Positions 5,537-62,607 of a DNA stretch of 64,000 bases are shown piece by piece; positions within the stretch are counted from its first letter, which is position 1, and each line of letters begins with the position of its first letter. Below the pieces are notes generated by a model. That model made no database searches. It was not told the DNA's origin and saw only the letters and a program-made list of their open reading frames with translations. This DNA comes from Longimicrobiales bacterium (GTDB lineage Bacteria; Gemmatimonadota; Gemmatimonadetes; Longimicrobiales; Gaopeijiaceae), in the NCBI GenBank assembly GCA_965238005.1, contig OZ250165.1, positions 192,001 through 256,000 on the forward strand. The letters are read 5' to 3'. A program made the translations under genes and the position numbers.

Positions 5537-5550
5537 GGCGTTTCCCCCTA

Positions 5551-6881: not shown

Positions 6882-6895
6882 AGCGTACTCCCCTC

Positions 6896-30317: not shown

Positions 30318-30321
<4 letters not shown>
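29860..30321 (-). CDS. tsaE: tRNA t6A biosynthesis ATPase TsaE
   Basis: [26 protein letters not shown]. Confidence 0.96.
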
Positions 30322-32306
<1,985 letters not shown>

Positions 32307-44536: not shown

Positions 44537-45534
44537 AGACCCCCTCTCCCGGAGGATGGGGCCGGCCGATGGGCCGCCAGCCATTCCACGGTCCTCTGAA
44601 GGCCCTCGCTGAGTGACACGGTGACGTCATATCCGAGGCTCTCCCGGGCTTTGTCCAGAGAGGCGAGGGAATCGCGAACGTCCCCCTCCCTTGCCGGCCC
44701 GTGGATCGCGTCCACAGGTGCCTTTGTGGCCTCCTGGATGGCTTCCCAGAGGTGATTTATGGAGATCCGTTCGCCACACCCCACGTTGAACACCTCGCCC
44801 GCCACATCCTCGGGCGCCGCCGTGCACGCCAACAGGTTCGCCCGGACCGCGTTCTCCACGTAGGTGAAGTCCCGGGTCTGCTCACCGTCCCCGTCGATGG
44901 TGGGCGCCTCGCCGGCCATGGCCTTCGTGATGAAGAGGGGAATCACGGCCGAGTATTGCGACGTGGGGTCCTGCCTGGGACCGAAGATGTTGAAGTAGCG
45001 GAGCACCACCGTCTCGAAGCCGTAGACCAGGGCGAAGGCCTGGCAGTAGTGCTCTCCCGTGAGCTTGGCCACGGCGTAGGGAGAACGGGGTTGGGCGGCC
45101 ATGCTCTCTACCTTCGGGAGCGTCGGTGTGTCCCCGTACGCCGAGCTGGATCCCGCGTACACGAAGCGCTTCACCTCGGCGTCACGGGAGGCGATGAGCA
45201 TGTTGAGCGTGCCCGTGGCGCAGGTGGCGTGGCTGGCGCCGGGGTCGGCGACGCTACGAGGAACCGACGGAAGGGCGGCCTGGTGAAGCACGTAATCGAC
45301 ATCTTTGCACGCGGCCACGCACGTCCCGGGATCCGTGATGGACCCCTCCACCATGTGGATGTGGTCCCAGAGGCCGTCCAGGTTCTCCTGCCGCCCGGTG
45401 GAGAAGTCTTCGAGGACGCGGACCGTGGCACCGGCGTCCGCCAGAGCAGCCACCAGGTTCGAGCCGACGAAGCCGGCTCCCCCGGTGACGAGGTAGCTGG
45501 CGCTGGGTGGGACCAGACCGGAGTCCTGAGTCAC
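44533..45534 (-). CDS. SDR epimerase (WbpP-like UDP-GlcNAc 4-epimerase)
   Basis: HQAALPSVPRS, SPYAVAK, RYFNIFGPRQDP..YSAVIP. Confidence 0.9.
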   Translation of the reverse strand: MTQDSGLVPPSASYLVTGGAGFVGSNLVAALADAGATVRVLEDFSTGRQENLDGLWDHIHMVEGSITDPGTCVAACKDVDYVLHQAALPSVPRSVADPGASHATCATGTLNMLIASRDAEVKRFVYAGSSSAYGDTPTLPKVESMAAQPRSPYAVAKLTGEHYCQAFALVYGFETVVLRYFNIFGPRQDPTSQYSAVIPLFITKAMAGEAPTIDGDGEQTRDFTYVENAVRANLLACTAAPEDVAGEVFNVGCGERISINHLWEAIQEATKAPVDAIHGPAREGDVRDSLASLDKARESLGYDVTVSLSEGLQRTVEWLAAHRPAPSSGRGGL

Positions 45535-45635
45535 GGGGAGAGCCTCGAGGGTCCGGGGTCAGGAGTCATGGGGACCCCCTCCAGGGTTCGTGGTTTCTGA
45601 GTGATCACGGGATTTCGGCGCCGGGATTCACGCGC

Positions 45636-48026: not shown

Positions 48027-48027
48027 G

Positions 48028-48126
48028 TCAGGCCACCTCCTCACGAAGCGCCTCGACCTCGGAGTCGATGCTGCTAAGACAGCAGGTGAGGAGCTCCACC
48101 AGCTCCTGGTATTCGCTTTGCGTCAT
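48028..48126 (-). pseudogene. Coiled-coil ORF family, N-terminal fragment
   Basis: [12 protein letters not shown]... matches the starts at 53324 and 55020, including upstream DNA; stop abuts the uxs start. Confidence 0.7.
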
Positions 48127-48228
48127 CCGCCCTCGGGTTCTCTGGGGATCCGCCCCATGCTACGCCTTCCCTGCCACCCTCGACAAGGTACGAGGGAGGG
48201 GGACCATTCGGGCCCTTTCTTGCGGAGC

Positions 48229-48648
48229 TCAGCTCGAAGGCCGTGAGGACCAATCCTCCACCTCCAGGGCGGGCACCCGCCCGAACTCCCGGACGTTCGC
48301 CGTCGCCAAGCGGAGGTCGTGGGTGAGACACGCCGCGGCGAGCCAGAGATCGTGGGCACCGATGAGCCGGCCCTCTTCTGCCAGATCCGCCCAGAGGCGG
48401 GCGTGCACCCGGGCGGTGGCGATCTCGACGGGAAGGAAGGGCATGCTCCCGAGAACTCCCTCGACGAAGGCGGTCCTCCGGGCGCGGGTCACGGGATCCT
48501 TCGCCCGATGGACGCCGTGGAGGAGCTCGCTTGCCGTCACGACGGACAGGAAGAAGGTCTCCTCTTCCCGCCCCCGGATCCGCGCTTCCAGGTCCACGCG
48601 ACCCCTCTCGTAGTCAATCAGGACCGAAGTGTCGATCAGGACTCCCAC
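48229..48648 (-). CDS. VapC/PIN-domain toxin
   Basis: [35 protein letters not shown]. Confidence 0.93.
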   Translation of the reverse strand: MGVLIDTSVLIDYERGRVDLEARIRGREEETFFLSVVTASELLHGVHRAKDPVTRARRTAFVEGVLGSMPFLPVEIATARVHARLWADLAEEGRLIGAHDLWLAAACLTHDLRLATANVREFGRVPALEVEDWSSRPSS

Positions 48649-48914
48649 GGATCTTCGTCGGGGAGGGCGGGAAGCGAGTCCCTGGCCTCCTGCATATCCC
48701 GACGCAACGCCTCCGCCTCTTCGACAGACAGGCGGGGAACAGCCTCGAGGAGGGCCGGAAGATCGCCGAGCCGTCCGCCTCGGGGAACCGGGACCAGTCG
48801 AGCCACGGGCCTTCCGCCCCGCTCCAGGACGAAGCGCTCCCCCCTGTAGAACACCCTGCTGACGATGTCCGCAAAGTTTCGGGCCGCTTCCGTCACCGAG
48901 ATCGTGTGCTTCAT
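48636..48914 (-). CDS. Phd/YefM-family antitoxin
   Basis: ISVTEAARNFADIVSRV..GERFVLERGGRPVARLVP; overlaps the toxin start. Confidence 0.9.
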   Translation of the reverse strand: MKHTISVTEAARNFADIVSRVFYRGERFVLERGGRPVARLVPVPRGGRLGDLPALLEAVPRLSVEEAEALRRDMQEARDSLPALPDEDPWES

Positions 48915-48968
48915 CGTTGAGCTGGCAGAGGTCAGGGTCCGGGTTCGAAGACCTGAGATCAAACGAGT

Positions 48969-48999
48969 GTCACATAATCATATAATATGATTATCTGAC
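48969..48999. promoter_or_regulatory. AT-rich palindromic operator/promoter upstream of the antitoxin
   Basis: GTCACATAATCATAT-A-ATATGATTATCTGAC, 14 of 15 positions paired. Confidence 0.65.
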
Positions 49000-49015
49000 G
49001 CGCAAGGCATCCGGC

Positions 49016-49285
49016 TCAGCGATTGCGGGCCGAGGGACCAAGAGGGATTTCATCGACGTATTCGCTCTGGGCCGTAGTGGCCTCGGTCTTGGGGAGATGC
49101 TTGACCTACACAAGCGTAGGTTCGCAGTTCGGGATATCGGGCACGTGGTAATGAGCCTCACCTACTTCGACGACGCCGAGGCCGAGGACATGCCGACAAT
49201 GCTGTGGGATGTGGGCTGGAGCGACGTCAAGCGGTCGATCGAACGCTGGGTTACAGACTACGCCCGCCACCCTGACCCACCCTAG
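49016..49285 (+). pseudogene. C-terminal remnant of AbiEii-like nucleotidyltransferase toxin
   Basis: SAIAGRGTKRDFIDVFAL...SLTYFDDAEAEDMP..W.DVK; no 5' half. Confidence 0.7.
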
Positions 49286-49318
49286 CGACAGGGGGGTCTT
49301 GTGTAAACAGCGGAAGAC

Positions 49319-49475
49319 TCATCGCCTGCGATCTTCCTCCAGGCGCGTCACCCGCCGGTCCAGCTCCAGGTGGCAAGTCCGTAGCAACTCGCCAAGATCC
49401 TGAAAGCCAACGGCCACCTCGGAGCGGAACGCCTCGAGCCTGCGGTCGTTCCCCGACACGGCTTCGGCCACAACC
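49319..49475 (-). pseudogene. Coiled-coil ORF family, C-terminal fragment
   Basis: VAEAVSGNDRRLEAFRSEVA...LELDRRVTRLEEDRRR matches 53063 and 54664 copies. Confidence 0.75.
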
Positions 49476-49542
49476 AAAGGGCTTGGACCTGGGACCGGTC
49501 CATGCTCAACGGAGCAGGCTCCTGAGGCATCGGGTTCCGCAG

Positions 49543-49571
49543 GTTGACATCGTGACGCTTTGATGTCATGG
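49543..49571 (+). promoter_or_regulatory. Sigma70-type promoter with overlapping inverted repeat (leaderless TA transcript)
   Basis: TTGACA-17 nt-CATGGT, 5 nt before ATG 49578; TGACATC...GATGTCA inverted repeat. Confidence 0.6.
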
Positions 49572-49577
49572 TGTGGC

Positions 49578-49811
49578 ATGGACACGAAATCCAAGCGCAC
49601 CACCGTCTACTTCGACGCTACCATCCATAGGGCGCTGCGTCTCAAGGCGGCTGAGACTGAGCAAAGCCTGTCGGATCTCGTGAATGCCGCGGTACGCGAG
49701 AGCCTCTTCGAAGACTCCGAGGATCTCGAGGCCTTCGAGGCCCGCGCCAAGGAACCGAGTCTCCTCTTCGAAGAGGTGCTCAAGGACCTGAGGCGTCGTG
49801 GCAAGCTATGA
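49578..49811 (+). CDS. CopG/RHH antitoxin
   Basis: KRTTVYFD..HRALRLKAAETEQSLSDLVNAAVR; overlaps relE. Confidence 0.88.
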   Translation: MDTKSKRTTVYFDATIHRALRLKAAETEQSLSDLVNAAVRESLFEDSEDLEAFEARAKEPSLLFEEVLKDLRRRGKL

Positions 49812-50055
49812 GCTCCGGATCAAGCCATCGGCCGTGAAGGAGTTGGAGGCCCTGCAGGACAAGGACCGACGTCGCGTTGTCGCCCGGATCCAGGCGTTGG
49901 CCGAGGAGTGCCGGCCCCAAGGATGCCAGAGACTCACCCAGAACGACCGTTATCGAATTCGTCAGGGCGTGTTCCGCATTCTTTACGAAGTGGACGATGG
50001 TGCCCGGACAGTAACCATCGTAAAGATCGGTCATCGTCGCGACGCCTACCGGTGA
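49798..50055 (+). CDS. RelE/ParE-family toxin
   Basis: IKPSAVKELEAL, YRIRQGVFRILYE, KIGHRRDAYR. Confidence 0.92.
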   Translation: MASYELRIKPSAVKELEALQDKDRRRVVARIQALAEECRPQGCQRLTQNDRYRIRQGVFRILYEVDDGARTVTIVKIGHRRDAYR

Positions 50056-50132
50056 TGCTGAGTACCGGTGCTCCGCAATGATCGATGCGGGTAAACTACT
50101 TCTGTGCCACCCGGTTCTGTGCCACCCGGGCG

Positions 50133-50171
50133 GCACCAAGATGCTTCCTCAGGGCGAAGAGGGGGATCGGC
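50133..50171. repeat. Copy of the ugd-leader motif
   Basis: GCACCAAGATGCTTCCTCAGGGCGAAGAGGGGGATCGGC matches 52758-52790 and 56141-56179. Confidence 0.75.
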
Positions 50172-50353
50172 TTGGCTCGCCTCAGGATCCAACGGGTTCG
50201 GGATTCCCCGCTCCAGTTTCCAAAGCAAGGCGAAACCCTGGGCGACACCATGGCGTGGTGGGCCAGCGATAATGGCGCCGGAGGAAGGGCACCAGCCAGT
50301 GGGGGTGTTGTGCGCGAGTCGGCGGCTCAATTGACGCGGTTGGTGAGAGCCGA

Positions 50354-52726
50354 TCAGCCCTGGTCCGGAGCGCCCACCGCCGGGCGGCCCACCGAGTAGT
50401 ACTCGAAGCCCGCCTCCGCCATACTCTCGAGCGAGTAGAGGTTTCGCCCATCGAAGACGAGGGGCTGCGCCATGAGACTTCGCATGCGGCCGAAGTCGGG
50501 GTGGCGGTACGGCAGCCACTCGGTGTGGATGACCAGCGCGTCGGCGTCCTTCAGGGCGTCGTAGTTCGCGTCCACCAACTCGATCGAGTCCCCCAGAATC
50601 CGGCGGGCTTCTCCCATGGCGGCCGGGTCATGCGCGACCACGCGGGCGCCCGCCTCGAGCAGACCGGCGATCGTCACCAGGCTGGGCGCCTCACGCATGT
50701 CGTCGGTGTTCGGCTTGAACGCCAGGCCCCATATGGCGATGGTCTGCCCCGAAAGGTCCGCGCCCAGGCGATCGACGAGCCCCTCGATCAAAAGCCGCTT
50801 CTGCGCCTCGTTCACGGCGTGGACGGCATCGAGGATGGACCCGTCCGTGCCCATCTCGCGCATGGTGTTGGCGAGCGCATTCACATCCTTTGGAAAACAG
50901 TTGTGCACCACGAGGCCCGCGGTCGTAACAAACGTCTCCTTCCCCGGAACCTCGACGGAGTAGACCCAGCCTCTGAAAGGGACAGGCCGGGACTCGGTGA
51001 CGCGCACCCACGCGACGCCTCGGGCGGGGCGGTAGCCGGTGGGAGCGACACGCTTGGTCTGGCGTGCCAGCGACGCGAGAACAGCCGGCCGGTCGGCTGG
51101 CTTCACCAACTCGATGAGCTGTTCCACCTGATTGGCGCCGGCGACGGCGACCCAGTGGGTGTCGGTGGTGGATTTGGCCGTCCGACCCACCTTGAGGCGA
51201 GCGCCGAACCCCAACCCGCCCAGGAGTCGCACCACACCGTCGGCGAGTTCTCGACTCACCGTTCCCCACTCGAGAACCACGCTCTGCCCTCCGTTGACCA
51301 GCGACCACGAGCCGTCTCCTTGCCAGAGGCCGGAAAGCAGGGCGATTTGCTCGGACGACGAGAGGTCCCAGACGGCATCGGGGAGCCGTTGCGTGTAGCA
51401 GTTGGCGCTCCGGGGGTGTTCCATCACCGCCGTCCGTACCTGGGCAAGCTCGAGTCCAGCCCGGGCCTCGGCTCCCAGGCGCACGATGACCTCGTCTTCA
51501 CGGAAGCCCATTGAAGCCATAGTTCCCACGACCTCCAGTTCCTCGTCGGCCTCCTGTAGCGCGGCCGGCTGGCCCATGGCCACCGGCAGCCAATCCTCGG
51601 TGGTCAGCTCCTGCGCCAGCTTCACCTGCGGCGCTCCGCCCACCCCATCGGAGACCACGAAGGGATGATCTGGCGTGCACCGCAGCCGACGCCCCATCTT
51701 GGTGCGGATCTTCAGGACTTCCCCCTCGTACCAGCGTCGGGTCACCGCCGAGGCCCGACGCCACTGCGGTCCCCCATCCGGACTCCACGACAGCACGGTC
51801 AGATCATCCGTCCAGGTCACTTCGGGCTCGAGGTCGTCCGTCACGGACGAAGGCACCACAGCGCAGTCCTCAAAGAGGGCATCCAGACGCACAAGGGTGG
51901 CACACCCCTTCCGCCGTGCCAGGACGGTCTCCTGGCCCAACAAACAGCTTCCCCCGTAGCCCACCCCCGGGAACAGGAAGCTCGACCCGATCCGCGAGTC
52001 CGACCCCACGCCCCGGCGCACGCTGTCCACGTCGGCGCCTGTGCGTGAACACAGGTCGGCCACCGAGTTCATGAAGCTGATGCGGAGTGCCAGCATGGCG
52101 TTCGCGGCGTACTTGGTGATCTCCGCCGCCGCCACGTCCATCAGGAGGATGTCGTGGCCCGTGCGCACGAACGGGGCGTAGAGGTCCCGGAGCACGGCGG
52201 CCGCGTACTCGCTGTCGACGCCCAGCACCACGCGGTCGGGCTTCATGAAGTCTTCAACGGCAGCCCCTTCCTTGAGGAATTCGGGGTTGGAGCAGACGTG
52301 GACCGGATGGTCCGTCTCCGCCTCGACGGCCTCACGAACCTTGGCTGCCGTCCCCACCGGCACCGTGCTCTTGGTGATGACGATCTTCTCGCCGTTCATG
52401 GCCCGGCCGATGGTCCGGGCGGCGTCGAGGATGTGCTGGAGGTCCGCCGAGCCGTCCTCGTCGGGGGGCGTGCCCACTGCGATGAAGATGATCTCGGAGG
52501 CCCGGACGGCCTCTGGGATGTCGGTCGTGAAGGTGAGGCGGCCCGATCGGAGGTTCCGCTCCACCAAGGGCTCGAGGCCCGGCTCGTATATGGGGATCTC
52601 GCCAGCGTTGAGCCGTGCGATCTTGTTCTCGATGATGTCCGAACAGACAACGTCGTTGCCGGTCTCGGCGAGGCAGGCGCCGGCTACGAGGCCGACGTAT
52701 CCGGTTCCGATGACTGCTACGTGCAT
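50354..52726 (-). CDS. ugd: UDP-glucose 6-dehydrogenase containing an intein
   Basis: [29 protein letters not shown]|...|CFPKD, GLAFKPNTDDMREAP. Confidence 0.96.
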   Translation of the reverse strand: MHVAVIGTGYVGLVAGACLAETGNDVVCSDIIENKIARLNAGEIPIYEPGLEPLVERNLRSGRLTFTTDIPEAVRASEIIFIAVGTPPDEDGSADLQHILDAARTIGRAMNGEKIVITKSTVPVGTAAKVREAVEAETDHPVHVCSNPEFLKEGAAVEDFMKPDRVVLGVDSEYAAAVLRDLYAPFVRTGHDILLMDVAAAEITKYAANAMLALRISFMNSVADLCSRTGADVDSVRRGVGSDSRIGSSFLFPGVGYGGSCLLGQETVLARRKGCATLVRLDALFEDCAVVPSSVTDDLEPEVTWTDDLTVLSWSPDGGPQWRRASAVTRRWYEGEVLKIRTKMGRRLRCTPDHPFVVSDGVGGAPQVKLAQELTTEDWLPVAMGQPAALQEADEELEVVGTMASMGFREDEVIVRLGAEARAGLELAQVRTAVMEHPRSANCYTQRLPDAVWDLSSSEQIALLSGLWQGDGSWSLVNGGQSVVLEWGTVSRELADGVVRLLGGLGFGARLKVGRTAKSTTDTHWVAVAGANQVEQLIELVKPADRPAVLASLARQTKRVAPTGYRPARGVAWVRVTESRPVPFRGWVYSVEVPGKETFVTTAGLVVHNCFPKDVNALANTMREMGTDGSILDAVHAVNEAQKRLLIEGLVDRLGADLSGQTIAIWGLAFKPNTDDMREAPSLVTIAGLLEAGARVVAHDPAAMGEARRILGDSIELVDANYDALKDADALVIHTEWLPYRHPDFGRMRSLMAQPLVFDGRNLYSLESMAEAGFEYYSVGRPAVGAPDQG
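50900..51946 (-). mobile_element. Intein (349 aa) with partial LAGLIDADG endonuclease in ugd
   Basis: Starts CLLGQE; block B CTPDHPF; only one LAGLIDADG-like motif seen (LLSGLWQGDG); ends VVHN before Cys+1. Confidence 0.94.
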
Positions 52727-52830
52727 GTGGCCTCGAGGTTGAGGGGGACGAACGAACGCACCAACATACTTCCTCAGGACGAAGAGCGGGCGCTATCTTT
52801 GGAGAGAGCGCCCGATTCCTGGGGGTCGAA

Positions 52831-52922
52831 ATGGCACCTCACAGATCGAATAACGGTCAACCCGAGGCAATGTGGGGGTCGCCCCCGCGTTCGCGGTTTG
52901 CGGATCCGCGTGAGCGATGTCT
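52831..52922 (+). pseudogene. DUF433 antitoxin N-terminal remnant
   Basis: LTDRITVNPRQCGGRPRVRGLRIRVSDV, out of frame with ATG 52831 and truncated. Confidence 0.7.
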
Positions 52923-53062
52923 GCACTTCGCCAGTGATCGCGTGAACCATCCGATCATGGGTGCGTGAAGCTCTGGCTCGGCAGGCGCCTGCCACCAGAC
53001 TCCACCCGCCGCTCTGACCCCCCAAAAGCGACAGGATGGTCTTCCAAAAAACAGCGGAAGAC

Positions 53063-53324
53063 TCAGCGCCTATCGCCTCCCTCCAGACGCGTCACACGTC
53101 GGTCCAGCTCCAGGTGGGAAGTCCAGTAGCTCCCGAAAGCCAGCCGCCACTTCGGAGCGGAACACCTGGAGCTTGCCGTCGATCCCCGACACGGCCTCGG
53201 CCACGATCTGGGTCTGGTGGCGGTTCTCTTCCCCGAGGATCTCCACACGGCGGAGACGCTCGTCGATACCGTCGAGCCGGGGGGCGATGAACTCCACCAG
53301 CTCCTGGTATTCGCTCCTAGTCAT
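53063..53324 (-). pseudogene. Coiled-coil ORF family, frameshifted copy
   Basis: [14 protein letters not shown]...FRSEVAAGFRELL, then LELDRRVTRLE in another frame. Confidence 0.75.
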
Positions 53325-53451
53325 CCGGCCTCTGGCCCCATGCCCACATGCCATGCGTTCGCTCTCACTCGGGCCAAGGTAAGACAATCTTCGCGGCAAG
53401 ACGATGCCCGGATGGGACGACACTCCTTAGGCGGTTTGCCACCGCAGTGCC

Positions 53452-53586
53452 CATCTCGTCGGGATGCGTGGGTGGCCGACGCGTAGGCAGGCTCCTTCGG
53501 GACCCGCTCGATTCCTTTTGTGTTCAGTGGTAGTCCGTGATCTCGACGTGCGCGGGGCCCTGGTCGGTCCCCACAAAACAACGCCG
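53452..53586 (-). pseudogene. HigB 3' end / HigA 5' end junction remnant
   Basis: CFVGTDQGPAHVEITDYH-stop followed by LPTRRPPTHPDEM. Confidence 0.7.
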
Positions 53587-53609
53587 AGGATGGCCCGCCG
53601 ACGACAGGA

Positions 53610-54038
53610 CTACGGGACGCGGACCCGCTCAGCCATCTCGGGCCACGCGATCCTCTTGAAGTGCCCGATGTTCCAGGTGTACACGGCCTCAACCTTCGCG
53701 CGCTCGGCGCACTTGAGGATGAGCGCGTCGTAGATCCGACCGCTCCGCGCCTCCACCCCGGCGACGTGTCGCAACACCCACAGGTAATCGCCCACGTCCA
53801 ATGTCACCGGAGCAAATGCGGTAGCCACGTGTTCGACGGCTTCGAGCACCTGATCCACCCGGCGCATCTTCGGCGTGGGAGTGGCCGAGAGCGTCGCGTA
53901 CAGCTCGGCGAGGGAGTGGGCGGCCACGAAGGCGTTCGAAGGAGTGGCCGTGGCCACGAGAGCCAGAGACCGCCGATGGTGCCGATGCGCGGCCTCGGAG
54001 GCCGCGAAGAGCACGGTCGTGTCGCAGAGAAAAGTCAT
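53610..54038 (-). CDS. VapC/PIN toxin (copy 1)
   Basis: CDTTVLFAA, HSLAELYATL, IYDALI, TWNIGHF. Confidence 0.92.
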   Translation of the reverse strand: MTFLCDTTVLFAASEAAHRHHRRSLALVATATPSNAFVAAHSLAELYATLSATPTPKMRRVDQVLEAVEHVATAFAPVTLDVGDYLWVLRHVAGVEARSGRIYDALILKCAERAKVEAVYTWNIGHFKRIAWPEMAERVRVP

Positions 54039-54052
54039 CGACCGAGAAGCCG

Positions 54053-54328
54053 CTACTCGTCTCCCCGGACCTGCCGGTGCCTGCGCTCCCGCTCGTCCTC
54101 AACGGCCCGGCCCAGGTCAACCGTCTGCTCCTCGCCGGACCGGAACACGACCCAGCCGCTGGCGTGCCGCTCGGCCGGAATCTCCTCCGGCCTCGGCCGG
54201 AGCACAATCCCATCCGGAGACTCGAAGATCTCGAGGCGGTGGCTCCCGTCGAGGAGGCCGTACTTCTCGCGCATGGCCCGTGGGACAACCACGCGACCGG
54301 AGCGATCCATCCTGATGGTCTTCTTCAT
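54053..54328 (-). CDS. AbrB/MazE-type antitoxin (copy 1)
   Basis: MDRSGRVVVPRAMREKYGL..GIVLRP. Confidence 0.9.
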   Translation of the reverse strand: MKKTIRMDRSGRVVVPRAMREKYGLLDGSHRLEIFESPDGIVLRPRPEEIPAERHASGWVVFRSGEEQTVDLGRAVEDERERRHRQVRGDE

Positions 54329-54663
54329 ACCATAAACGATGGCACGCGAAGGTGGTATCGTCAATGGCACAGACATGCCATTCGTGCCGCCATCGATCCC
54401 GAGCTAGACGCCCGTCCGAGCCGGCATCATGTTCGGGTGGGAGGGGAGCCATCATCGCACGATCCGCCGTATCCCACGCCGTGGATCGAACGGAAGGCGG
54501 AAGAAATACCGTCGAAAAGACGGACTCCCAACTCGCTCCCACCTGGGCGCGTCTGGCTCAGCGGCCTATCTCCAGCCTCGATATGAGGACATCGAGATCG
54601 AGCAGGCCCGGTACGATGAGGCAGAACGCAGATTGGGGTGGGTTTCTGTAAGCAGGGTAAGAC

Positions 54664-55020
54664 TCACCGCCCACGATCTTCCTCCAGGCGCGTCATCCGC
54701 CGGTTCAGCTCCAGGTAGGAAGTCCCTATCAACTCGCGAATGTCCTGGAACTCAGCGGCCACCTCCGACCGGAACGCCTCGAGCTTGAGGGCGTTCCCCG
54801 ACACGCCTTCGGCCACTCCCGACAAGCCTTGGGCCACACCCGACAAGCCTTCGGCCACCCCCGACACGCCTTCGGCCACGATCTGGATCTGGTGGCGGTT
54901 CTCTTCCCCGAGGATCTCCACACGGCGGAGGCGCTCATCCATAGAGTCGAAGCGCTTGTCGTTGCGATCGAACCGGACGGCGATGAACTCCGCGAGCTCC
55001 TGGTACTCGCTCCTGGTCAT
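54664..55020 (-). CDS. Small coiled-coil protein with heptad tandem repeats (intact family member)
   Basis: 118 aa, uninterrupted; VAEGVSG-type heptad x4 from a 21-bp repeat at 54797-54879. Confidence 0.75.
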   Translation of the reverse strand: MTRSEYQELAEFIAVRFDRNDKRFDSMDERLRRVEILGEENRHQIQIVAEGVSGVAEGLSGVAQGLSGVAEGVSGNALKLEAFRSEVAAEFQDIRELIGTSYLELNRRMTRLEEDRGR

Positions 55021-55147
55021 CTGGCCTCTGGCTTCAAGCCCCCAGGCTACGCGTTCCCTCTCACTCGGGCCAAGATAAGACAATCTTCGCGGCAAGACGA
55101 TGCCCGGATGGGACGACACTCCTTAGGCGGTTTGGCACCGCAGTGCC

Positions 55148-55281
55148 CATCTCGTCGGGATGCGTTGTGGCCGACGCGTAGGCAGGCTCCTTCGGGACCC
55201 GCTCGATTCCTTTTGTGTTCAGTGGTAGTCCGTGATCTCGACGTGCGCGGGGCCCTGGTCGGTCCCCACAAAACAACGCCG
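55148..55281 (-). pseudogene. HigB/HigA junction remnant (copy 2)
   Basis: Duplicate of 53452-53586. Confidence 0.68.
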
Positions 55282-55304
55282 AGGATGGCCCGCCGACGAC
55301 AGGA

Positions 55305-55733
55305 CTACGGGACGCGGACCCGCTCAGCCATCTCGGGCCACGCGATCCTCCTAAAGCGCCCGATGTTCCAGGTGTACACCGCCTCAACCTTCGCGCGCTC
55401 GGCGCACTTGAGGATGAGCGCGTCGTAGATCTGACCGCTCCGCGCCTCCACCCCGGCGACGTGTCGCAACACCCACAGGTAATCGCCCACGTCCAATGTC
55501 ACCGGAGCAAATGCGGTAGCCACGTGTTCGACGGCTTCGAGCACCTGATCCACCCGGCGCATCTTCGGCGTGGGAGTGGCCGAGAGCGTCGCGTACAGCT
55601 CGGCGAGGGAGTGGGCGGCCACGAAGGCGTTCGAAGGAGTCGCCGTGGCCACGAGAGCCAGAGACCGCCGATGGTGCCGATGCGCGGCCTCGGAGGCCGC
55701 GAAGAGCACGGTCGTGTCGCAGAGAAAAGTCAT
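55305..55733 (-). CDS. VapC/PIN toxin (copy 2)
   Basis: Near-identical to 53610-54038. Confidence 0.92.
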   Translation of the reverse strand: MTFLCDTTVLFAASEAAHRHHRRSLALVATATPSNAFVAAHSLAELYATLSATPTPKMRRVDQVLEAVEHVATAFAPVTLDVGDYLWVLRHVAGVEARSGQIYDALILKCAERAKVEAVYTWNIGRFRRIAWPEMAERVRVP

Positions 55734-55747
55734 CGACCGAGAAGCCG

Positions 55748-56023
55748 CTACTCGTCTCCCCGGACCTGCCGGTGCCTGCGCTCCCACTCCTCCTCAACGG
55801 CCCGGCCCAGGTCAACCGTCTGCTCCTCGCCGGACCGGAACACGACCCAGCCGCTAGCGTGCCGCTCGGCCGGAATCTCCTCCGGCCTCGGCCGGAGCAC
55901 AATCCCGTCCGGAGACTCGAAGATCTCGAGGCGGTGGTCCCCGTCGACGAGGCCGTACTTCTCGCGCATGGCCCGTGGGACAACCACGCGACCGGCGCGA
56001 TCCATCTTGATGGTCTTCTTCAT
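55748..56023 (-). CDS. AbrB/MazE-type antitoxin (copy 2)
   Basis: Near-identical to 54053-54328. Confidence 0.9.
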   Translation of the reverse strand: MKKTIKMDRAGRVVVPRAMREKYGLVDGDHRLEIFESPDGIVLRPRPEEIPAERHASGWVVFRSGEEQTVDLGRAVEEEWERRHRQVRGDE

Positions 56024-56105
56024 ACCATTAATCATGGTACATGAGGTGGTATTATCAATGGTGCCCATATGCCATTCGTGCCGCCCGTCCACGATGACTT
56101 CTATG

Positions 56106-56179
56106 GCATGTGGCCTCGAGGTTGAGGGGGACGAGCGAACGCACCAACATACTTCCTCAGGACGAAGAGGGGGATCGGC
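56106..56179 (-). repeat. Copy of the ugd leader and ATG with no ugd behind it
   Basis: GCATGTGGCCTCGAGGTTGAGGGGGACGA..GCACCAACATACTTCCTCAGGACGAAGAG matches 52723-52789. Confidence 0.9.
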
Positions 56180-56360
56180 CAGGGCGGTGCGATCGATGAT
56201 CAGGCCGGGCGCCTGGATCCTCACTGTTCCGTTGAGGGCCAGGTTCGGGAGCATGGCGTTGACTGACACTCCCGTGAGCCAACGGGTCCCAAGCAACCAT
56301 GGAACGGTTCACGCCCGTGGACTATACTAGGATCAGACAGCGCTCTTCACTGGAGGTCCT

Positions 56361-56588
56361 ATGCCCAGTTCACTGCAATCCGTCGAGGCCGCCGCTCTCG
56401 AGTTGAGCCCCGAAGAGCGGGCCCAGCTCGCTCAGCGCCTGTTCGCGAGTCTCCCTCGGGATCCAGAGGTCGAGGCGGCGTGGGACGAGGAGATCAAGCG
56501 TCGCGTCGCCGAGCTAGAAGCGGGAGTGATGGAGACGATTCCGGCCGAGGAGGTCTTTGGCGAGGCTCGCAGCCGGCTGAAGGCGTAG
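56361..56588 (+). CDS. Addiction-module antitoxin
   Basis: ALELSPEERAQLAQRLFASL..EAAWDEEIKRR..IPAEEVF; GGAGG RBS. Confidence 0.9.
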   Translation: MPSSLQSVEAAALELSPEERAQLAQRLFASLPRDPEVEAAWDEEIKRRVAELEAGVMETIPAEEVFGEARSRLKA

Positions 56589-56879
56589 TTGCGAGTTGAA
56601 TTCGCCACTCCGGCGAGTTCGGAGTTCCTAGCGGCGATCGACCTCTACGAGTCACAGGTTCCGGGGATCGGTCGCGAATTCATCGAAGACGTGGAGCAGG
56701 CCGTCCAGCTCGTCGCTGAGTTCCCTTCCATCGGCAGTCCCGCACCGTCAGGTACACGCCGAGCCCATCTGAGGCGGTTCCCCTATGCTCTCGTGTATCA
56801 GGAGACGTCGGAGTCGATCTGGGTCGTTGCGGTTGAGCATCACCGAAGGAGGCCTGGATTCTGGGAGGATCGACTGTAG
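56589..56879 (+). CDS. ParE/RelE-family toxin
   Basis: YESQVPGIGREF, RRFPYALVY, VAVEHHRRRPGFW; TTG start. Confidence 0.88.
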   Translation: MRVEFATPASSEFLAAIDLYESQVPGIGREFIEDVEQAVQLVAEFPSIGSPAPSGTRRAHLRRFPYALVYQETSESIWVVAVEHHRRRPGFWEDRL

Positions 56880-56965
56880 GGCCCGATTAGCCGAGCAAAT
56901 CATCTCAAGCCTCGATGAGGAAGCCGAGATTGAGCGAGAGTGGCTGGCAGAGGTGGCGGCGACGG
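56877..56965 (+). pseudogene. Second addiction-module antitoxin fragment
   Basis: RARLAEQIISSLDEEAEIEREWLAEV parallels 56361-56588. Confidence 0.6.
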
Positions 56966-57014
56966 GATGCTGAATTGGACACTGGCGACGCGATCCTATT
57001 CGCTGCAGGTGACC

Positions 57015-57186
57015 TCAGCCCTCCGGCTGGGGGTGGACCGTGGGGTCGCTGTAGACCTCGGAGGTGGAGGCCATGAGGAAGCGTCCACCCTTCTCCTTCG
57101 CCAACTCGGGGAGGTTGTGAGTGGCGTAGCTCCCCACCTTGAGGGTGGCCGGGAAGCCGGCGGCGCCGGTGATGAGGAGTGTCTCC
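57015..57186 (-). pseudogene. Internally deleted uxs-like remnant
   Basis: LLITGAAGF joined to [34 protein letters not shown]. Confidence 0.8.
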
Positions 57187-57220
57187 TGGTTGTTCGATCG
57201 AGTTCGACGACGGCCTCAGA

Positions 57221-57436
57221 TCAAGCGGGCACCTCGACGTATGCCGAGTAGCTATGAGGCTCCGGCACTTCGTACTCCTCCGCCCTAAGGCCATCCAGGT
57301 GGAATTGGATGGCCCCCCGCATATTGCGCTCGACATCCTCGCGGGTAGCTCCCGTCGAAACGCATCCGGCCAGGTCGGGTGAGTACGCTGAGTAACCCGT
57401 GTCCGTCTCTTCAATGACGATCAGATACTTCTTCAT
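57221..57436 (-). CDS. hicB: HicB-family antitoxin
   Basis: YLIVIEE..GYSAYSPDLAGCVSTGATREDV..AIQFHLDGL. Confidence 0.92.
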   Translation of the reverse strand: MKKYLIVIEETDTGYSAYSPDLAGCVSTGATREDVERNMRGAIQFHLDGLRAEEYEVPEPHSYSAYVEVPA

Positions 57437-57600
57437 GCCTTGAGTCCCGCCTGCTTGAGGATGCTATTCAGGGTACCCGGAGCAAGCTCGTCGTTCATCG
57501 TCCCCGGTACCGTCACGAGGCCCTTCTTCTCACGGTGCTTGTATTGATGATGACTGCCCCGGGTTCGCGCCAGTACCAGCCGTCCTGGGATCAGCGCCGA
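57433..57600 (-). pseudogene. hicA: HicA toxin, 5' end damaged
   Basis: RTRGSHHQYKH..VTVPG..LAPGTLNSILKQAGL; upstream QDGWY is in another frame and there is no proper start. Confidence 0.75.
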
Positions 57601-58018
57601 AGACTTGGTGCGGCTTCTGTGATGGGCTCCTCGTCGCGTGGGCGAAGGAACGGTTCGGTCCGGCACATCCCGTAACACCCGGTTCCCGCACGGCCCTCAG
57701 GTGCGCCTGCGCGCTTGAGCAAGCAGTCCTTACAATTAACGACGTGCCGGCCCTTCGGGACCTACGTGGCTGCGCGATTCCGGTCGGGAACCGATTGGCC
57801 CGTTACGCGACGTTTGACCCCCCTGGTGGGGGCGTCAGATTCCGTCTATGGTCAAGGTGGTAGATCGCCTCATAAGGCCGGCCACCCGTGGTACCTCTCC
57901 CGCGGCCATGCACCGCTGGGACGAGCCGTCCAGCGAAGGCCTGCGGGCGTACCCGCAGGACCATGGTCTGGGTACACCGAGTCGGTGAGTGCCTCCAAAT
58001 GGGAGATGGCGATGGTGG

Positions 58019-58299
58019 TTAGTCGAAGAGGTCGGAGTGGGTACCCGTTCGCTCAAACGTGATCGTGTCGTCAACGATGCGATAGATCAGGACCCAGCCG
58101 GGGCGGATGTGACAGTCACGGTGTCCCTTCCATTCGCCAGACAACTGGTAATCGCGATGGCGTTCGCCAAGGGGCTACCGGCGATCAGAGATTCCATCAC
58201 CGTCCTGACTTCCATCATGTCGTACCCGCGCTTCCTGCACCTCCTGTAATCGCGCTTGAACTGAGCAGTCCGTGCGGTCCGAAGCGGACCCTTGGCCAT
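58019..58299 (-). pseudogene. yafQ: YafQ-family toxin, frameshifted
   Basis: TAQFKRDYRRCRKRG..PLA then, after a 1-nt shift near 58165, RHRDYQLSGEWKGHRDCHIRPGWVLIY..RTGTHSDLF. Confidence 0.85.
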
Positions 58300-58301
58300 C
58301 C

Positions 58302-58541
58302 TCAGTTCTCGAGATCTTCAAACAGCTCTTCGGCGGATTCGAATTCCCGCACGTTCCGCCCAGCGTCCGCGTCTCGAAGCGTTTCCGCAGTGCGCGCGTT
58401 GGGCGCGACAAGCACACGCGGTTCGAGGACGATCTTTCCGTCCTCGAATTCTCGAACATGGTAGTGGTCGTACTCGGCCTCCCGAATCGTGAGCCGCTTC
58501 CGGGAGTCCAGCTTCGCGTCGTATTCCCTCACCGCACCCAT
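58302..58541 (-). CDS. Antitoxin with AbrB-like N-terminus and DinJ-like C-terminus
   Basis: KLDSRKRLTIR..DGKIVLEPR then PNARTAETLRDA..FESAEELFEDL; directly upstream of yafQ. Confidence 0.75.
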   Translation of the reverse strand: MGAVREYDAKLDSRKRLTIREAEYDHYHVREFEDGKIVLEPRVLVAPNARTAETLRDADAGRNVREFESAEELFEDLEN

Positions 58542-58604
58542 GCTTCCCCCTTGGTGTGGGTATTCCCATCTGGAACTTCACCCCCAGCCTCGGGGAGCGC
58601 AAGA

Positions 58605-58755
58605 GATGGGTCAACCGCAAGTAGCGGGCGTCGCCGCAGAGATCCAGGCCGCCGGGCCATTCGACGCTGCCGTGCTCTCCAATCCGAACCGCCTCTACCA
58701 CCGAGGTCAGAAAGATCGACCGCGCCCTCAGAGCCGTCCTCGAACCGATGGGACG
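58605..58755 (-). pseudogene. DUF2442-like remnant
   Basis: RFEDGSEGAVDLSDLGGRG joined out of frame to EAVRIGEHGSVEWPGGLDLCGDARYLRLT. Confidence 0.7.
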
Positions 58756-58793
58756 GGGGCCATCAGCGCATCACCCTACTTCCGCCGTGTACC

Positions 58794-59278
58794 GCTGTCG
58801 ACGCCCAGAACCACGCGATCGGGCTTCATGAAGTCGTCGACGGCCGCCCCCTCCTTGAGAAACTCGGGGTTGGAGCAGACGTGGACCTTGTGGTCCGTCT
58901 CCGCCTCGATGGCTTCGCGAACCTTCGCCGCGGTCCCCACTGGCACCGTGCTCTTGGTGATGACGATCTTCTCGCCGTTCATGGCCCGGCCGATGGTCCG
59001 GGCCGCATCGAGCACATGCTGGAGGTCAGCGGAGCCGTCCTCGTCGGGGGGCGTGCCCACGGCAATGAAGATGATCTCGGAGGCCCGGACGGCCTCTGGG
59101 ATGTCGGTGGTGAAGGTGAGGCGGCCGGAGCGGAGGTTCCGCTCCACCAGGGGCTCGAGGCCCGGCTCGTATATGGGATCTCGCCGGCGTTCAGGCGGGC
59201 GATTTTGCCGTCGATGATGTCGGCGCAGATGACGTCGTTGCCGGCCTCGGCCAGGCAGGCACCGGCTACGAGGCCGAC
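58794..59278 (-). pseudogene. ugd: ugd 5' fragment B
   Basis: [15 protein letters not shown]...[13 protein letters not shown]; no start; frameshift near 59175. Confidence 0.92.
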
Positions 59279-59279
59279 G

Positions 59280-59362
59280 ATCCTCTCCGTCGTGACGGCC
59301 AGCGAGCTCCTCCACGGCGGGGAACAGCCTCGAGGAGGCCGGGAAGATCGCCCAGCCGACCA
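59280..59362. pseudogene. Scrambled relic of the PIN/Phd pair at 48229-48914
   Basis: [12 protein letters not shown] on + (toxin piece inverted) fused to a segment matching 48733-48775. Confidence 0.7.
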
Positions 59363-59649
59363 CCCGATCCACTTCCTCGGTCTCGATCCAGCGATAGATG
59401 GTGCGTCGGCCAAAGCCCAGTTCACGGGCGATGGCCGCCTAATGCCTTCTTCGAGATAGTGTCTGAGCAACACGTGCTTCTCCCTTCCATACATCGCGCC
59501 TCCGACGTGTGAGTGAAGTCGCGAAGGTTGGGTGATCGGCCGCGAGGACGCCCAGCTAGTAGAGCACACGGCCCTCCAGCCCAAGCTACAGGACCGCCGA
59601 GTGTGAGATTTCGTCCGCCACTTCTGTGCAGTTTTGGGCCCCTCTAACA
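59362..59649 (-). mobile_element. IS21-family left end and istA N-terminal stump
   Basis: TGTTAGAGG..AAAACTGCACA..AAATCTCACA end; [38 protein letters not shown], frameshifted. Confidence 0.7.
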
Positions 59650-59685
59650 CACGGAAGGCTTGGGGCGAACAGAGCTGGATGAGCG

Positions 59686-60381
59686 TCACTGGGCCACGAC
59701 ATAGCCCAGGACGTGATTCAGAATGCCGAGGAATTCACGAGCTACCAGCAACACGTCCCGTCGATGCCGCCACCAATCTGATGGATCGAAGGGATCACGC
59801 GTGGCCGCGCGGACGACCCCCGGCGGACCCCCGTTTGCCACCCGATTCCAGATCAATCGAACCCGACGCGTATGGACCTTCGAGGTGACGAGTATCACTG
59901 GGAGGGTATCCCGGGCCAGAGCCCGCGCCGCGACCTTAAGTTCCTCGAACGTGCCACCCCGAAAACGCTCCTCGGGCACCACGATGGCCGAGTCAGGAAT
60001 CCCGAGTCGTACGAGAACCTCACGCGTTCTCACCATTGACTCAGCGAGCTCAACACCCAGTTCTCGCAGCATCTGCTGTTGCTCCGAGAAGCCTACTTGT
60101 ATGAGCATGAGATTAGGGGCCCATCCTGCGTGATATATCCTGGCCGCCTCGATCTCTCGGACCGGCAGATCCCCACCAAGGACGATGATGGTCGAAGCGG
60201 ATCGTAGAGGATCCTCCACGATCAGGAACGCCGCGGCAGTCCTGAGAGCGGGCCTCCAGCCGAGGATGATGATTAGGACCACTCCGAACACACCGCCTGC
60301 CCAACGCGCCAATCGGCCGCGATTCTTCCCCGCGTGCGCCGGGATCGCCTTCGGCTCCCCTTGCCGGATCGTCTCACTCAC
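59686..60381 (-). CDS. YdcF/DUF218 family protein
   Basis: IIVLGGD..R..EAARIY, TFEE, ILVTSKVHTRR, WW..REFLG. Confidence 0.85.
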   Translation of the reverse strand: MSETIRQGEPKAIPAHAGKNRGRLARWAGGVFGVVLIIILGWRPALRTAAAFLIVEDPLRSASTIIVLGGDLPVREIEAARIYHAGWAPNLMLIQVGFSEQQQMLRELGVELAESMVRTREVLVRLGIPDSAIVVPEERFRGGTFEELKVAARALARDTLPVILVTSKVHTRRVRLIWNRVANGGPPGVVRAATRDPFDPSDWWRHRRDVLLVAREFLGILNHVLGYVVAQ

Positions 60382-60806
60382 GTCGCCGCTCCCCTCACAA
60401 CTGGATCGACCGATCTCGACCGCACCGACAAGCCCTGATCGCCGAAGAATCCGTAGCGGCGAAGGTAGTAGCATTTCCGTCGAACTCGGGCAGGAACTTC
60501 TCGACGATCAGGTGACGATTCTGAAAGACAGTCTTTCTTGGATCGCAGGACAAGGTATTGGCTGAGGGTCCACAACGGTCGAACAGGAAGCGAGCACCGT
60601 TGATGATTCGACGATGCACGGGTTGGCCGAGGAAAAGGATTGACTCGGGCATACCCCCGGAGTTGTTGTCCGTCTTGAGGATAACGGATCCGGCGTAGTC
60701 GCCTTCCGACGACACCAGATTGCAACTGAAGGAGGACTTCCGGATATCCGAATGTTGCCGTGCCGCACCAGGGCCCGGACGTACTCGGGCGGTGGGACAG
60801 AGACAT
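60378..60806 (-). pseudogene. Multiply frameshifted hypothetical (possibly ATP-grasp-like) gene
   Basis: Protein-like blocks in shifting frames: DIRKSSFSCNLV..GSVILKTDNNSGGMPE..IVEKFLPEFDG / YYLRRYGFFGD; stop overlaps the DUF218 start. Confidence 0.45.
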
Positions 60807-61284
60807 CAGTCGTCGACCGCCGCCCCTTCCTTGAGAAACTCGGGATTGGAGCAGACGTGGATCTTGTGGTCCGTCTCCGCCTCGATGACCTCGCGAACCT
60901 TCGCCGCCGTCCCCACCGGAACCGTGCTCTTGGTGATGACGATCTTCTCGCCGTTCATCGCCCGGCCTATTGTCCGAGCGGCGTCGGGACGTGCTGGAGA
61001 TCCGCCGAGCCGTCCTCGTCGGGGGGCGTGCCCACTGCGATGAAGATGATCTCGGAGGCCCGGACGGCCTCTGGGATGTCGGTCGTGAAGGTGAGGCGGC
61101 CCGATCGGAGGTTCCGCTCCACCAGGGGCTCGAGGCCCGGCTCGTATATGGGGATCTCGCCGGCGTTCAGGCGGGCGATCTTGTCCTCGATGATGTCGGC
61201 GCAGATGACGTCGTTGCCGGTCTCGGCGAGGCAGGCGCCGGCTACGAGGCCGACGTATCCTGTTCCGATGAGTGCTACGTGTAT
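60806..61284 (-). pseudogene. ugd: ugd 5' fragment C
   Basis: ATA in place of [15 protein letters not shown]...[17 protein letters not shown]; frameshift near 60990. Confidence 0.92.
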
Positions 61285-61500
61285 GCGAGATCGGGGTTGG
61301 AAGGGACGAGGGGCAGAATGAATGGAGTCGGCCGGAGGACAGTCGAATGAGTCCCCTGCCGCAGTAGTCTATCGCAAACGGGGCGGAAGTGCACTCGGCG
61401 CCGGACTGGAGTGGAACTGGATGACGCCACACGACGGCCGACCGTTACCAGTCCTGACTTCTCAGCGTGCCTAGACGGGCGCGATGGCTTCCCGCGCCCC

Positions 61501-62607
61501 TCACCTCCGACCATCGGTCCAGGCATCGAACACGCCGACGATGCGACCGGCAGCGGCACCGTCCCAGCCCTCGGGCCTTCGGGCTTCCGGCCGGGCGTCT
61601 CTTGTCTCCCGGAAGGCTTCGAGGATGGCGGACCTGCTTCGGTCCGGAACTAGGCGGTTCGTACCCTGTTCGACGGTGACAGGCCGTTCCGTGCACGGCC
61701 GGAGTGTGAGGCACGGCACACCCAAGACGGTGGTCTCTTCCTGGATCCCGCCAGAGTCGGTGAGGACGACGGCGGCCGATTCCATGAGCGAAAGCAGTTC
61801 GAGGTAACCCAGGGGCTTCGTGACCGTCACGCCTGAGGGACTCAGACCGAACGCCTCGCTTCGCTCCTTGGTCCGCGGGTGCATGGGAAATAGCACCGGC
61901 ATCTCGGCCGCGATCACCTCCAGAGCGCTGAAGATCTCGCCGAGCTGGTCACGGTCGTCAACGTTCCGCGGCCGATGGAGCGTGACGACGGCGTAGCCAT
62001 CTTCCTTCACGTCGAAGCGGCGGTGCGCCTCGATCTCCCGGGCGCGATCCACCAGCGAGAGAAGCGTATCGATCATCACGTTCCCCACGAAGTGGATCCG
62101 CTCCGCCGGCACGCCTTCGGCCAGGAGGTTCTCGTCGGCATCCCGGCTCGGCGTAAGCAGGATCTCCGCGACGCGATCTGTGAGCACGCGGTTGATCTCC
62201 TCAGGCATGGCTAGGTCGCGACTCCTGAGCCCGGCCTCCACGTGGGCGACCGGGACGCCCATCTTCACCGCCGTCACGGTGGCAGCCAGCGTCGAGTTCA
62301 CGTCCCCGACTACGACGACCAGCTCCGGTCGGACGTCGCGCAACACGGGCTCCAGAGCAGTCATGACCCCGGCTGTCTGCGTCGCGTGGGTGCCGGATCC
62401 CACGCCCAGGTTGATGTCGGGCGTCGGGATACCGAGCTCCGAGAAGAACGCCTTCGACATGACCTCGTCGTAGTGCTGGCCAGTATGGACCAAGGTGTTC
62501 CGGTATCCGCCACGCCCCTCCATCTCCCTGAGCAGGGGAGCGATCTTCATGAAGTTGGGGCGGGCGCCCACGACGTGGAGGACAGACGTGGCGCCGCTCC
62601 AGCTCAT
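61501..62607 (-). CDS. wecB: UDP-N-acetylglucosamine 2-epimerase (non-hydrolysing)
   Basis: GARPNFMK, HTGQHYD, HVEAGLRS, TDSGGIQEE. Confidence 0.96.
   Translation of the reverse strand: MSWSGATSVLHVVGARPNFMKIAPLLREMEGRGGYRNTLVHTGQHYDEVMSKAFFSELGIPTPDINLGVGSGTHATQTAGVMTALEPVLRDVRPELVVVVGDVNSTLAATVTAVKMGVPVAHVEAGLRSRDLAMPEEINRVLTDRVAEILLTPSRDADENLLAEGVPAERIHFVGNVMIDTLLSLVDRAREIEAHRRFDVKEDGYAVVTLHRPRNVDDRDQLGEIFSALEVIAAEMPVLFPMHPRTKERSEAFGLSPSGVTVTKPLGYLELLSLMESAAVVLTDSGGIQEETTVLGVPCLTLRPCTERPVTVEQGTNRLVPDRSRSAILEAFRETRDARPEARRPEGWDGAAAGRIVGVFDAWTDGRR

Follow-up and report, generated by a model that had tools for sequence, protein, structure and literature searches.

For the orphan immunity gene arrays of the Vibrio cholerae type VI secretion system (T6SS), and for the "C-terminal displacement" of Rhs proteins, the model put forward is homology-facilitated illegitimate recombination (HFIR), according to the portion of the source available to us (PMC5361080). 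Here we describe a locus of related build in the genome of a Longimicrobiales bacterium (Gemmatimonadota; contig OZ250165.1), where truncated copies of ugd, the gene for UDP-glucose dehydrogenase, alternate with toxin-antitoxin (TA) modules over about 13 kb (48028-61.5 kb) of the stretch analysed, a window of 64,000 nt. Like the sequential displacement arrays of T6SS, Rhs and contact-dependent inhibition (CDI) loci in that account, it is free of recognisable integrase genes and appears to use a conserved stretch of a resident gene as a homology anchor, so that an import would displace part of the old gene and the remnant would stay beside retained small genes (PMC5361080). The geometry differs. 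In the T6SS and Rhs arrays, as the same portion of the source describes them, the 5' anchors are conserved and the 3' toxin ends are pushed downstream with their immunity genes, whereas here the 5' ends of a housekeeping sugar-nucleotide gene have been left upstream. The retained cargo consists of TA modules rather than immunity genes, and a pattern documented there across many strains is known here from one genome (PMC5361080).

TA modules stabilise islands and chromosomal integrons against deletion, and sedentary chromosomal integrons with TA cassettes resemble our locus as arrays of small cargo units, many of them TA modules, in the part of the source on which we draw (PMC8230891). Integrons, however, need IntI, attI and attC, none of which was found in the searches described below, and what is repeated here is part of a core gene. 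Some islands, the dusA-specific ones for example, integrate in the 5' end of a gene and restore it with a 5' end of their own. As in those islands, a displaced 5' fragment of the target flanks the cargo and the gene appears still functional; each dusA-type island has its own tyrosine integrase and a constant attachment core, whereas here there is no recognisable integrase and the truncation points differ. HFIR itself was reportedly treated by de Vries & Wackernagel in 2002 and by Prudhomme in 2002. In transformation and conjugation it involves one homologous and one illegitimate end, as set out in the accessible part of a further source (PMC3240628). Our locus would share with it the additive integration of foreign DNA next to the anchor; that part of the source deals with a laboratory phenomenon of single events and describes no stacked natural series with TA cargo, whereas the series seen here is natural and stacked (PMC3240628).

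Truncated ugd alleles among toxin-antitoxin modules

We searched for repeats by self-BLASTN of the window, for gene families with Pfam and NCBIfam, and for RNAs with Rfam. The core genes of the locus all lie on the minus strand, and "downstream" is used here for the direction from wecB to uxs (Table 1). An earlier reading of this DNA by eye, the original prediction, had listed a series of ugd repeats; all of them were recovered by self-BLASTN, so the structure is real. The peptides that it quoted (ETGNDVVCSDIIENK and further ones) were reproduced by translating the alignments, and Pfam bore out both its gene order from wecB to uxs and its placement of TA modules between the ugd copies.

Table 1. 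Features of the ugd locus and its border genes, with positions in the window
Feature	Position	Strand	Basis
uxs (UDP-glucuronate decarboxylase family) with intein	45636-48026	-	Pfam Epimerase, Intein_splicing, LAGLIDADG_3
32-codon open reading frame that ends at the uxs start and resembles the N-terminus of gene X	48028-48126	-	74 nt, 68-76% to X 5' ends
phd-vapC (vapC48) module	48229-48914	-	Pfam PhdYeFM_antitox, PIN
Gene X 3' remnant	49254-49471	-	78-85% to 3' ends of both X genes
Ribbon-helix-helix (RHH) antitoxin/ParE toxin module	49560-50055	+	Pfam ParE_toxin E 2.7e-11; RHH match weak
ugd leader scrap, downstream of ugd	50133-50171	-	39 nt, 92% vs 56141-56179
Intact ugd with leader	50354-52790 (gene 50354-52726)	-	Pfam UDPG_MGDP_dh N, central and C domains
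Module of vapB, vapC (vapC53) and X	vapB 54053-54328, vapC 53610-54038, X 53070-53324	-	Pfam MazE_antitoxin, PIN
Module of vapB, vapC and coiled-coil gene X	vapB 55748-56023, vapC 55305-55733, X 54664-55020	-	Pfam MazE_antitoxin, PIN
Stump A (ugd leader, ATG and about 6 codons)	56092-56179	-	Motif search and self-BLASTN
Unstab_antitox/ParE module	56361-56879	+	Pfam E 2e-16 and 3.2e-11
Second Unstab_antitox fragment	56773-56970	+	Pfam E 3.8e-4
uxs stump, residues ~8-18 fused to 96-137 of a divergent Uxs	57021-57215	-	Weak Pfam Epimerase, GDP_Man_Dehyd
hicA-hicB module	57221-57678	-	Pfam HicA_toxin E 1.7e-16; HicB_lk_antitox E 2.9e-10
yafQ/relE-like toxin gene, frameshifted	58019-58299	-	Pfam YafQ_toxin E 1.4e-6, profile positions 3-41 only
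Putative antitoxin, upstream of the yafQ-like gene	58302-58541	-	Position only; no Pfam/NCBIfam match
ugd stump B	58784-59283	-	89.9% over 503 nt vs 52200-52702 (self-BLASTN)
phd-vapC scraps	59281-59364		39 nt vapC48-like (inverted, 95%), 49 nt phd48-like (direct, 90%)
DUF218 (YdcF-like) gene	59686-60474	-	Pfam DUF218 E 5.8e-13
ugd stump C	60808-61309	-	90.9% over 503 nt vs 52249-52751 (self-BLASTN)
wecB (UDP-GlcNAc 2-epimerase), upstream border gene	61501-62607	-	Pfam Epimerase_2 E 3.9e-101

The ugd copies are direct repeats of 83-500 nt in the same orientation, with different small cargo after each and no recombinase gene, which is the arrangement of a displacement array. Stump C retains 25 nt of the leader and codons 1-159; its ATG has become ATA, and 1 nt is missing near codon 100. 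Stump B runs from codon 9 to about codon 175 and has a 1-nt deletion at codon 44. These two are 92.5% identical to each other over 455 nt, and each has a single frameshift, its own truncation point and its own unique flanks. The original prediction correctly recognised two 5' fragments and placed their ends near codons 160-170; the true ends are codon 159 and about codon 175. Stump A matches the ugd leader (56092-56173 against 52708-52790) with 94% identity over 83 nt. A 31-nt motif in the leader has three copies in the window, and none of 100 shuffles contained any match to it. Extended to 31-39 nt, this motif stands at 50133-50171, 52758-52796 and 56141-56179, once downstream of ugd and otherwise upstream of ugd or stump A; the region upstream of stump C is devoid of it. 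Rfam gave no match in 44000-64000 with E values up to 1, so the motif corresponds to no known RNA.

We used ugd codons 10-158 of the intact copy and of stumps B and C to assess whether the stumps had been functional. The ratio of nonsynonymous to synonymous substitution rates (dN/dS) was 0.11 between the intact gene and stump B (synonymous rate dS 0.38; Fisher p 3e-12), 0.12 between the intact gene and stump C (dS 0.25; p 8e-9) and 0.08 between the two stumps (dS 0.28; p 3e-11). Third codon positions held 35 of the 47 differences in the first comparison, 24 of 34 in the second and 27 of 33 in the third, and the changes specific to one copy were in synonymous to nonsynonymous proportions of 17:6 for B, 8:2 for C and 16:8 for the intact gene. 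This excess of synonymous differences, together with the low dN/dS, indicates that the copies diverged under purifying selection and that the stumps were functional alleles before they were truncated, as the original prediction had proposed. These substitution patterns mark the stumps as relics of alleles that once worked and had diverged from each other, rather than as recent duplicates. Each stump differs from the resident Ugd allele at 9 of 149 residues, and the nearest alleles of other genomes differ from it at 10-14 of 149. Variant blocks alternate along the alignment: the intact gene agrees with C at nt 1-64 and 180-378, and B agrees with C at nt 78-160 and 381-474 (permutation p 0.02), which argues for recombination among alleles.

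Every interval between the ugd repeats contains TA modules. We count seven intact modules and several broken ones among the ugd copies. Pfam identified pairs of Phd/PIN, RHH/ParE, MazE-AbrB/PIN (twice), Unstab_antitox/ParE and HicA/HicB; by family assignment and by the adjacency of small antitoxin and toxin genes these are type II TA modules. One of them, the vapB-vapC-X module, is duplicated, with its vapBC parts 95-100% identical and its X parts only 41-88%. The C-terminal half of the yafQ-like gene lies in another reading frame, and scrambled phd and vapC scraps adjoin the cut 5' end of stump B. The DUF218 gene has its nearest database homologue at just 55% identity. In this high-GC window (about 65% GC), the GC content at third codon positions (GC3) of the core genes is 0.83-0.91. 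It is 0.66-0.71 in the DUF218 gene (0.66), hicA, hicB, both parE genes and the gene at 58302; it is host-like in the vapBC genes (0.84-0.87) and 0.80-0.81 in the inteins described below. Part of the cargo thus looks compositionally foreign. Clusters at ≥90% identity comprise 27 members for the VapC53-like protein and 36 for the HicB-like protein, on many contigs.

The island also contains a stump of uxs that is 69% identical over 42 amino acids (aa) to the resident Uxs (tblastn) and 66-76% identical to the Uxs of relatives. Besides the ugd stumps, it is the only island sequence that matches the loci of relatives at the DNA level. With stump B, which lies upstream of it, this uxs stump may be what remains of an entire second ugd-TA-uxs unit. 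Rearrangement of the island after its formation is evident from the uxs stump, from the duplicated module, from the scrambled remains of TA genes and from the leader scrap on the downstream side of ugd. The uxs stump, the module duplication, the phd and vapC scraps beside stump B, the yafQ frameshift, the two smaller gene X remnants and the inteins of ugd and uxs were absent from the original prediction.

We found no integrase, transposase or recombinase Pfam domain in 24 open reading frames (ORFs) of the island, 35 ORFs of the rest of the window (1898-45534), two further island ORF pieces or 98 stop-to-stop pieces from the island gaps (E up to 0.05). The same ORFs include no intI integrase gene next to the array. 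A general repeat search, which used no dedicated attC model, detected neither an attC-like repeat family nor a recurring imperfect palindrome at the cargo borders. The original prediction had described the locus as lacking an integrase and attC sites; the domain scans agree with the first point, and the general repeat search is in keeping with the second.

Related loci and the ancestral gene order

We compared the locus with 80 related loci from a genome contig collection, all with ≤84% Ugd identity and mostly from metagenome bins. The best Ugd match in this collection (84% aa identity) is from a Gemmatimonadaceae bin, and the closest group is Gemmatimonadota. All 80 loci have a single ugd with no intein, no second ugd copy of at least 50% identity and no match to a cargo protein. 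In 46 of them ugd is followed directly by uxs (gap of -21 to +158 nt); four have uxs at another place in the locus, and 30 had no uxs match, partly because contigs end. The adjacency of ugd and uxs is, on this distribution, ancestral. From this adjacency and the clean relatives it follows that both inteins are derived, as are the TA block of 2.3 kb that separates ugd from uxs and the block of 8.7 kb on the upstream side of ugd. The proposal of recurrent entry at the 5' end of ugd found no backing in this comparison, as a second ugd copy, TA cargo or an intein was present in 0 of the 80 loci at these Ugd identities. We also considered 120 listed truncated Ugd ORFs of 73-233 aa from a protein collection. 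In 32 of them the C-terminus continues for 8 aa or more in non-homologous sequence. Many of these tails are alternate-frame ugd produced by frameshifts, and the end points resemble those of partial genes at contig ends; the set therefore provides no evidence for or against a truncation hotspot.

The wider neighbourhood was also compared. In the three closest relatives within the genome contig collection, uvrB lies directly upstream of ugd (L001:9143-9919, L002:1904-3883 and L003:980-2737), and in the first two a wzi-like gene lies further upstream. In the window, uvrB (30318-32306) and spoT are about 18 kb away on the other side of the ugd-uxs operon. The placement of uvrB thus indicates that the operon occupies a different chromosomal context here.

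Candidate routes of array formation

Our preferred explanation, to which we give a probability of roughly one half, is that foreign DNA was inserted repeatedly by homology-anchored, one-sided illegitimate events and retained through TA addiction. We infer the recombination mechanism, the direction and order of events and the stabilising role of the TA modules as follows. In the ancestral order, ugd would have been followed directly by uxs. DNA of related strains would then have entered several times, each piece bringing its own ugd allele (and at least once uxs) along with TA and accessory genes. One end of each import would have been resolved by homologous recombination inside the conserved ugd-uxs operon and the other by illegitimate joining within or just upstream of ugd. 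The outcome would be an additive insertion instead of a clean replacement, that is, integrase-independent HFIR, and the 5' part of the earlier ugd allele would stay as a dead stump upstream of the working copy. Segments with TA modules would survive, since their loss is expected to harm the cell by post-segregational killing. Later deletions, an inversion and a module duplication would have blurred the record. Direct repeats normally delete the DNA between them, and the presence of TA modules in every interval fits survivorship by post-segregational killing. The original prediction took the locus for a record of successive acquisitions. The sequence evidence supports an integrase-free record of this kind; the idea of an orderly chronicle is weakened by the later rearrangements.

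Several points weigh against this explanation. The structure is known from one genome and near-identical copies, and the three contigs that carry the stump-B ORF may not be independent assemblies. Stacking was seen in 0 of the 80 related loci, all of which are at ≤84% Ugd identity, and the intein-free Ugd proteins that are 91-94% identical, encoded on contigs of up to 2 Mb, were compared as proteins only. A donor search returned no database allele nearer to either stump than the local ugd, so that no donor was identified, and no donor arrangement of the cargo was found. The illegitimate joints are proposed without donor sequences in which microhomology could be compared, DNA uptake by this organism is presupposed, and the argument for TA retention is one of position. 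The order of the stumps need not be chronological, because one scrap is inverted, the uxs piece has an internal deletion and a leader scrap lies downstream of ugd. HFIR is also reported as rare in the consulted portion of the T6SS source (PMC5361080).

If repeated one-sided insertion is correct, the locus preserves, layer by layer, a natural history of gene additions made by host recombination alone, in a soil phylum that has received little study, and the persistence of an insertion appears to depend on TA modules. The range of displacement arrays, until now known from polymorphic toxin loci, would grow to include a housekeeping operon. The cargo and the series of stumps at this site would also be expected to vary among strains whose ugd is >90% identical. 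The question would also arise whether intein endonucleases are able to seed such hotspots. If relatives instead share one fixed structure, the locus would be an old, locally scrambled insertion of limited general interest.

It is possible, though we think it unlikely, that the units are RecA-dependent cassettes. A crossover between a stump and the intact ugd would loop out a circle containing a ugd 5' segment and TA genes, and the circle would re-enter in another cell by a Campbell-type single crossover in ugd; such re-entry would recreate the order of stump, cargo and intact gene, and repetition would stack cassettes. This agrees with the uniformly direct orientation of the 83-500-nt repeats around the cargo, with the alternating variant blocks, as reciprocal crossovers would give, and with the occurrence of ≥90% identical vapC53-like and hicB-like cargo on many contigs, and with the lack of a recombinase gene. 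However, we observed neither a circle nor an empty site, the codon at which a stump breaks off varies (6, 159 and about 175), and such cassettes were present in none of the 80 related loci. The lost 5' end of stump B and the uxs piece inside the array are not predicted by a simple circle model. We regard as slightly less probable again a bolder version in which the ugd 5' segment is a portable homology arm: units would circle out, move among related Gemmatimonadota and re-enter at ugd, TA modules would lock them in place, and breaks made by intein endonucleases may make the operon recombinogenic, so that the locus would be a working RecA-driven analogue of an integron and no passive scar.

The repeated 5' end of the target gene around the cargo would also be expected if one or more islands of the integrase type had inserted into the 5' end of ugd, supplied a substitute for it and later lost their integrase genes by deletion. 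A by-eye resemblance of 59380-59510 (minus strand) to the start of a transposase or recombinase, noted below, points the same way. We consider such decayed islands improbable. Even fragmentary integrase or transposase domains were missing from the 98 gap pieces, and neither a site-specific integrase nor a fixed shared attachment core was seen. The three stumps end at different codons, which argues against a common core. The whole island had no match among phages. Its segment 52791-60790 matched 88 plasmid records, the best 10 of which all align to ugd stump B; beyond this stump the best 10 of 88 gave no plasmid match.

A comparably low probability attaches to a by-product of intein homing, an idea suggested by the inserts in ugd (790 aa) and uxs (796-802 aa), both of which match Pfam Intein_splicing and LAGLIDADG_3. 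By their domains and their in-frame position at conserved host sites, both are inteins with a homing-endonuclease domain. The ugd intein covers aa 261-609 (nt 50900-51946) and precedes the Cys of GGSCFPKD, with boundaries GGS/C...HN/CFPKD; the uxs intein covers aa 182-655 of the long ORF (nt 46080-47501), with boundaries RIFN/S...HN/TYGPRM. UDP-glucose dehydrogenase is a known intein host, according to the available part of the source (PMC2874743). Among the 120 closest listed Ugd proteins, three, this one included, have an intein at one shared site; the other two inteins share 54-63% identity with the one described here. The seven closest Ugd proteins (91-94% identical) are intein-free. Intein-bearing Uxs of at least 90% identity is encoded on two other contigs, one of them in a 660-aa form, and a 796-aa form is in the protein collection. 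Under the homing scenario, an incoming LAGLIDADG endonuclease would have cut an intein-free resident ugd at codon 261; the downstream end would have been repaired by homology, and the upstream end would have been resected by 260-300 nt and joined illegitimately, leaving a 5' stump. The rarity of the intein at a single site, the presence of inteins in both genes, the ends of both long stumps 86-102 codons upstream of the insertion site and the existence of solely 5' stumps are all in keeping with this. Against it, an intein-bearing gene is immune to its own endonuclease, which makes repeated events in one lineage hard to explain, and stump A breaks off as early as codon 6. The two ugd exteins match the seven closest proteins equally well, with about 93% identity on either side of the intein, so that there is no clear co-conversion tract. 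The sample consists of two stumps, and endonuclease activity is predicted from the domain match.

We all but discount an assembly chimera, in which strain variants of the ugd region from a mixed sample would have been concatenated. Co-occurring strains can differ as much as these copies do (about 90% identity), and the relatives come mostly from metagenome bins. On the other hand, the contig is 4.84 Mb long, the large core genes in the window are intact, and each copy has its own flanks, frameshift and truncation point. The exact 123-aa ORF of stump B, with its non-ugd tail across the junction, is present on three contigs, and exact copies of wecB, the DUF218 gene, X, vapC53 and the gene at 58302 are each on 3-4 contigs. 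A near-identical strain also has the intein-bearing Ugd (2 of 790 residues different) and VapC48 (1 of 139), each on a 53,119-bp contig. On all these grounds an assembly artefact is unlikely. Finally, the resident ugd 5' end might have been duplicated locally and then decayed neutrally, as the tandem direct repeats and the plainly local duplication of the vapB-vapC-X module would suggest. This is scarcely credible, because neutral decay of both stumps would give a dN/dS of about 1 between them instead of 0.08, which nearly refutes it, and a dS of 0.25-0.38 with one indel per stump misfits long neutral decay.

Gene X and other minor features

Gene X has no Pfam or NCBIfam family, and its Atlas neighbours are unnamed coiled-coil proteins. 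Four complete or partial copies are present; each closes a TA module on its downstream side and shortly precedes ugd or uxs. The copy at 54664 contains a 21-nt unit in tandem repeat (54797-54879). A perfect 19-nt palindrome (48975-48993) lies directly upstream of phd-vapC48 and is likely the antitoxin operator.

Some candidate pieces noted by eye received no Pfam or NCBIfam support. These were an AbiEii-like piece (48992-49282, plus strand), a DUF433-like piece (~52831-52945, plus strand), a DUF2442-like piece (~58600-58700, minus strand) and a frameshifted piece (59380-59510, minus strand) that resembled the helix-turn-helix start of a transposase or recombinase; NCBIfam gave no match for the piece at 59425-59643. 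Far from the island, a repeat of about 190-210 nt occurs in three copies (5533-5741, 6878-7094 and 11040-11233) that are 91-96% identical and lie near genes for tetratricopeptide repeat (TPR) proteins.

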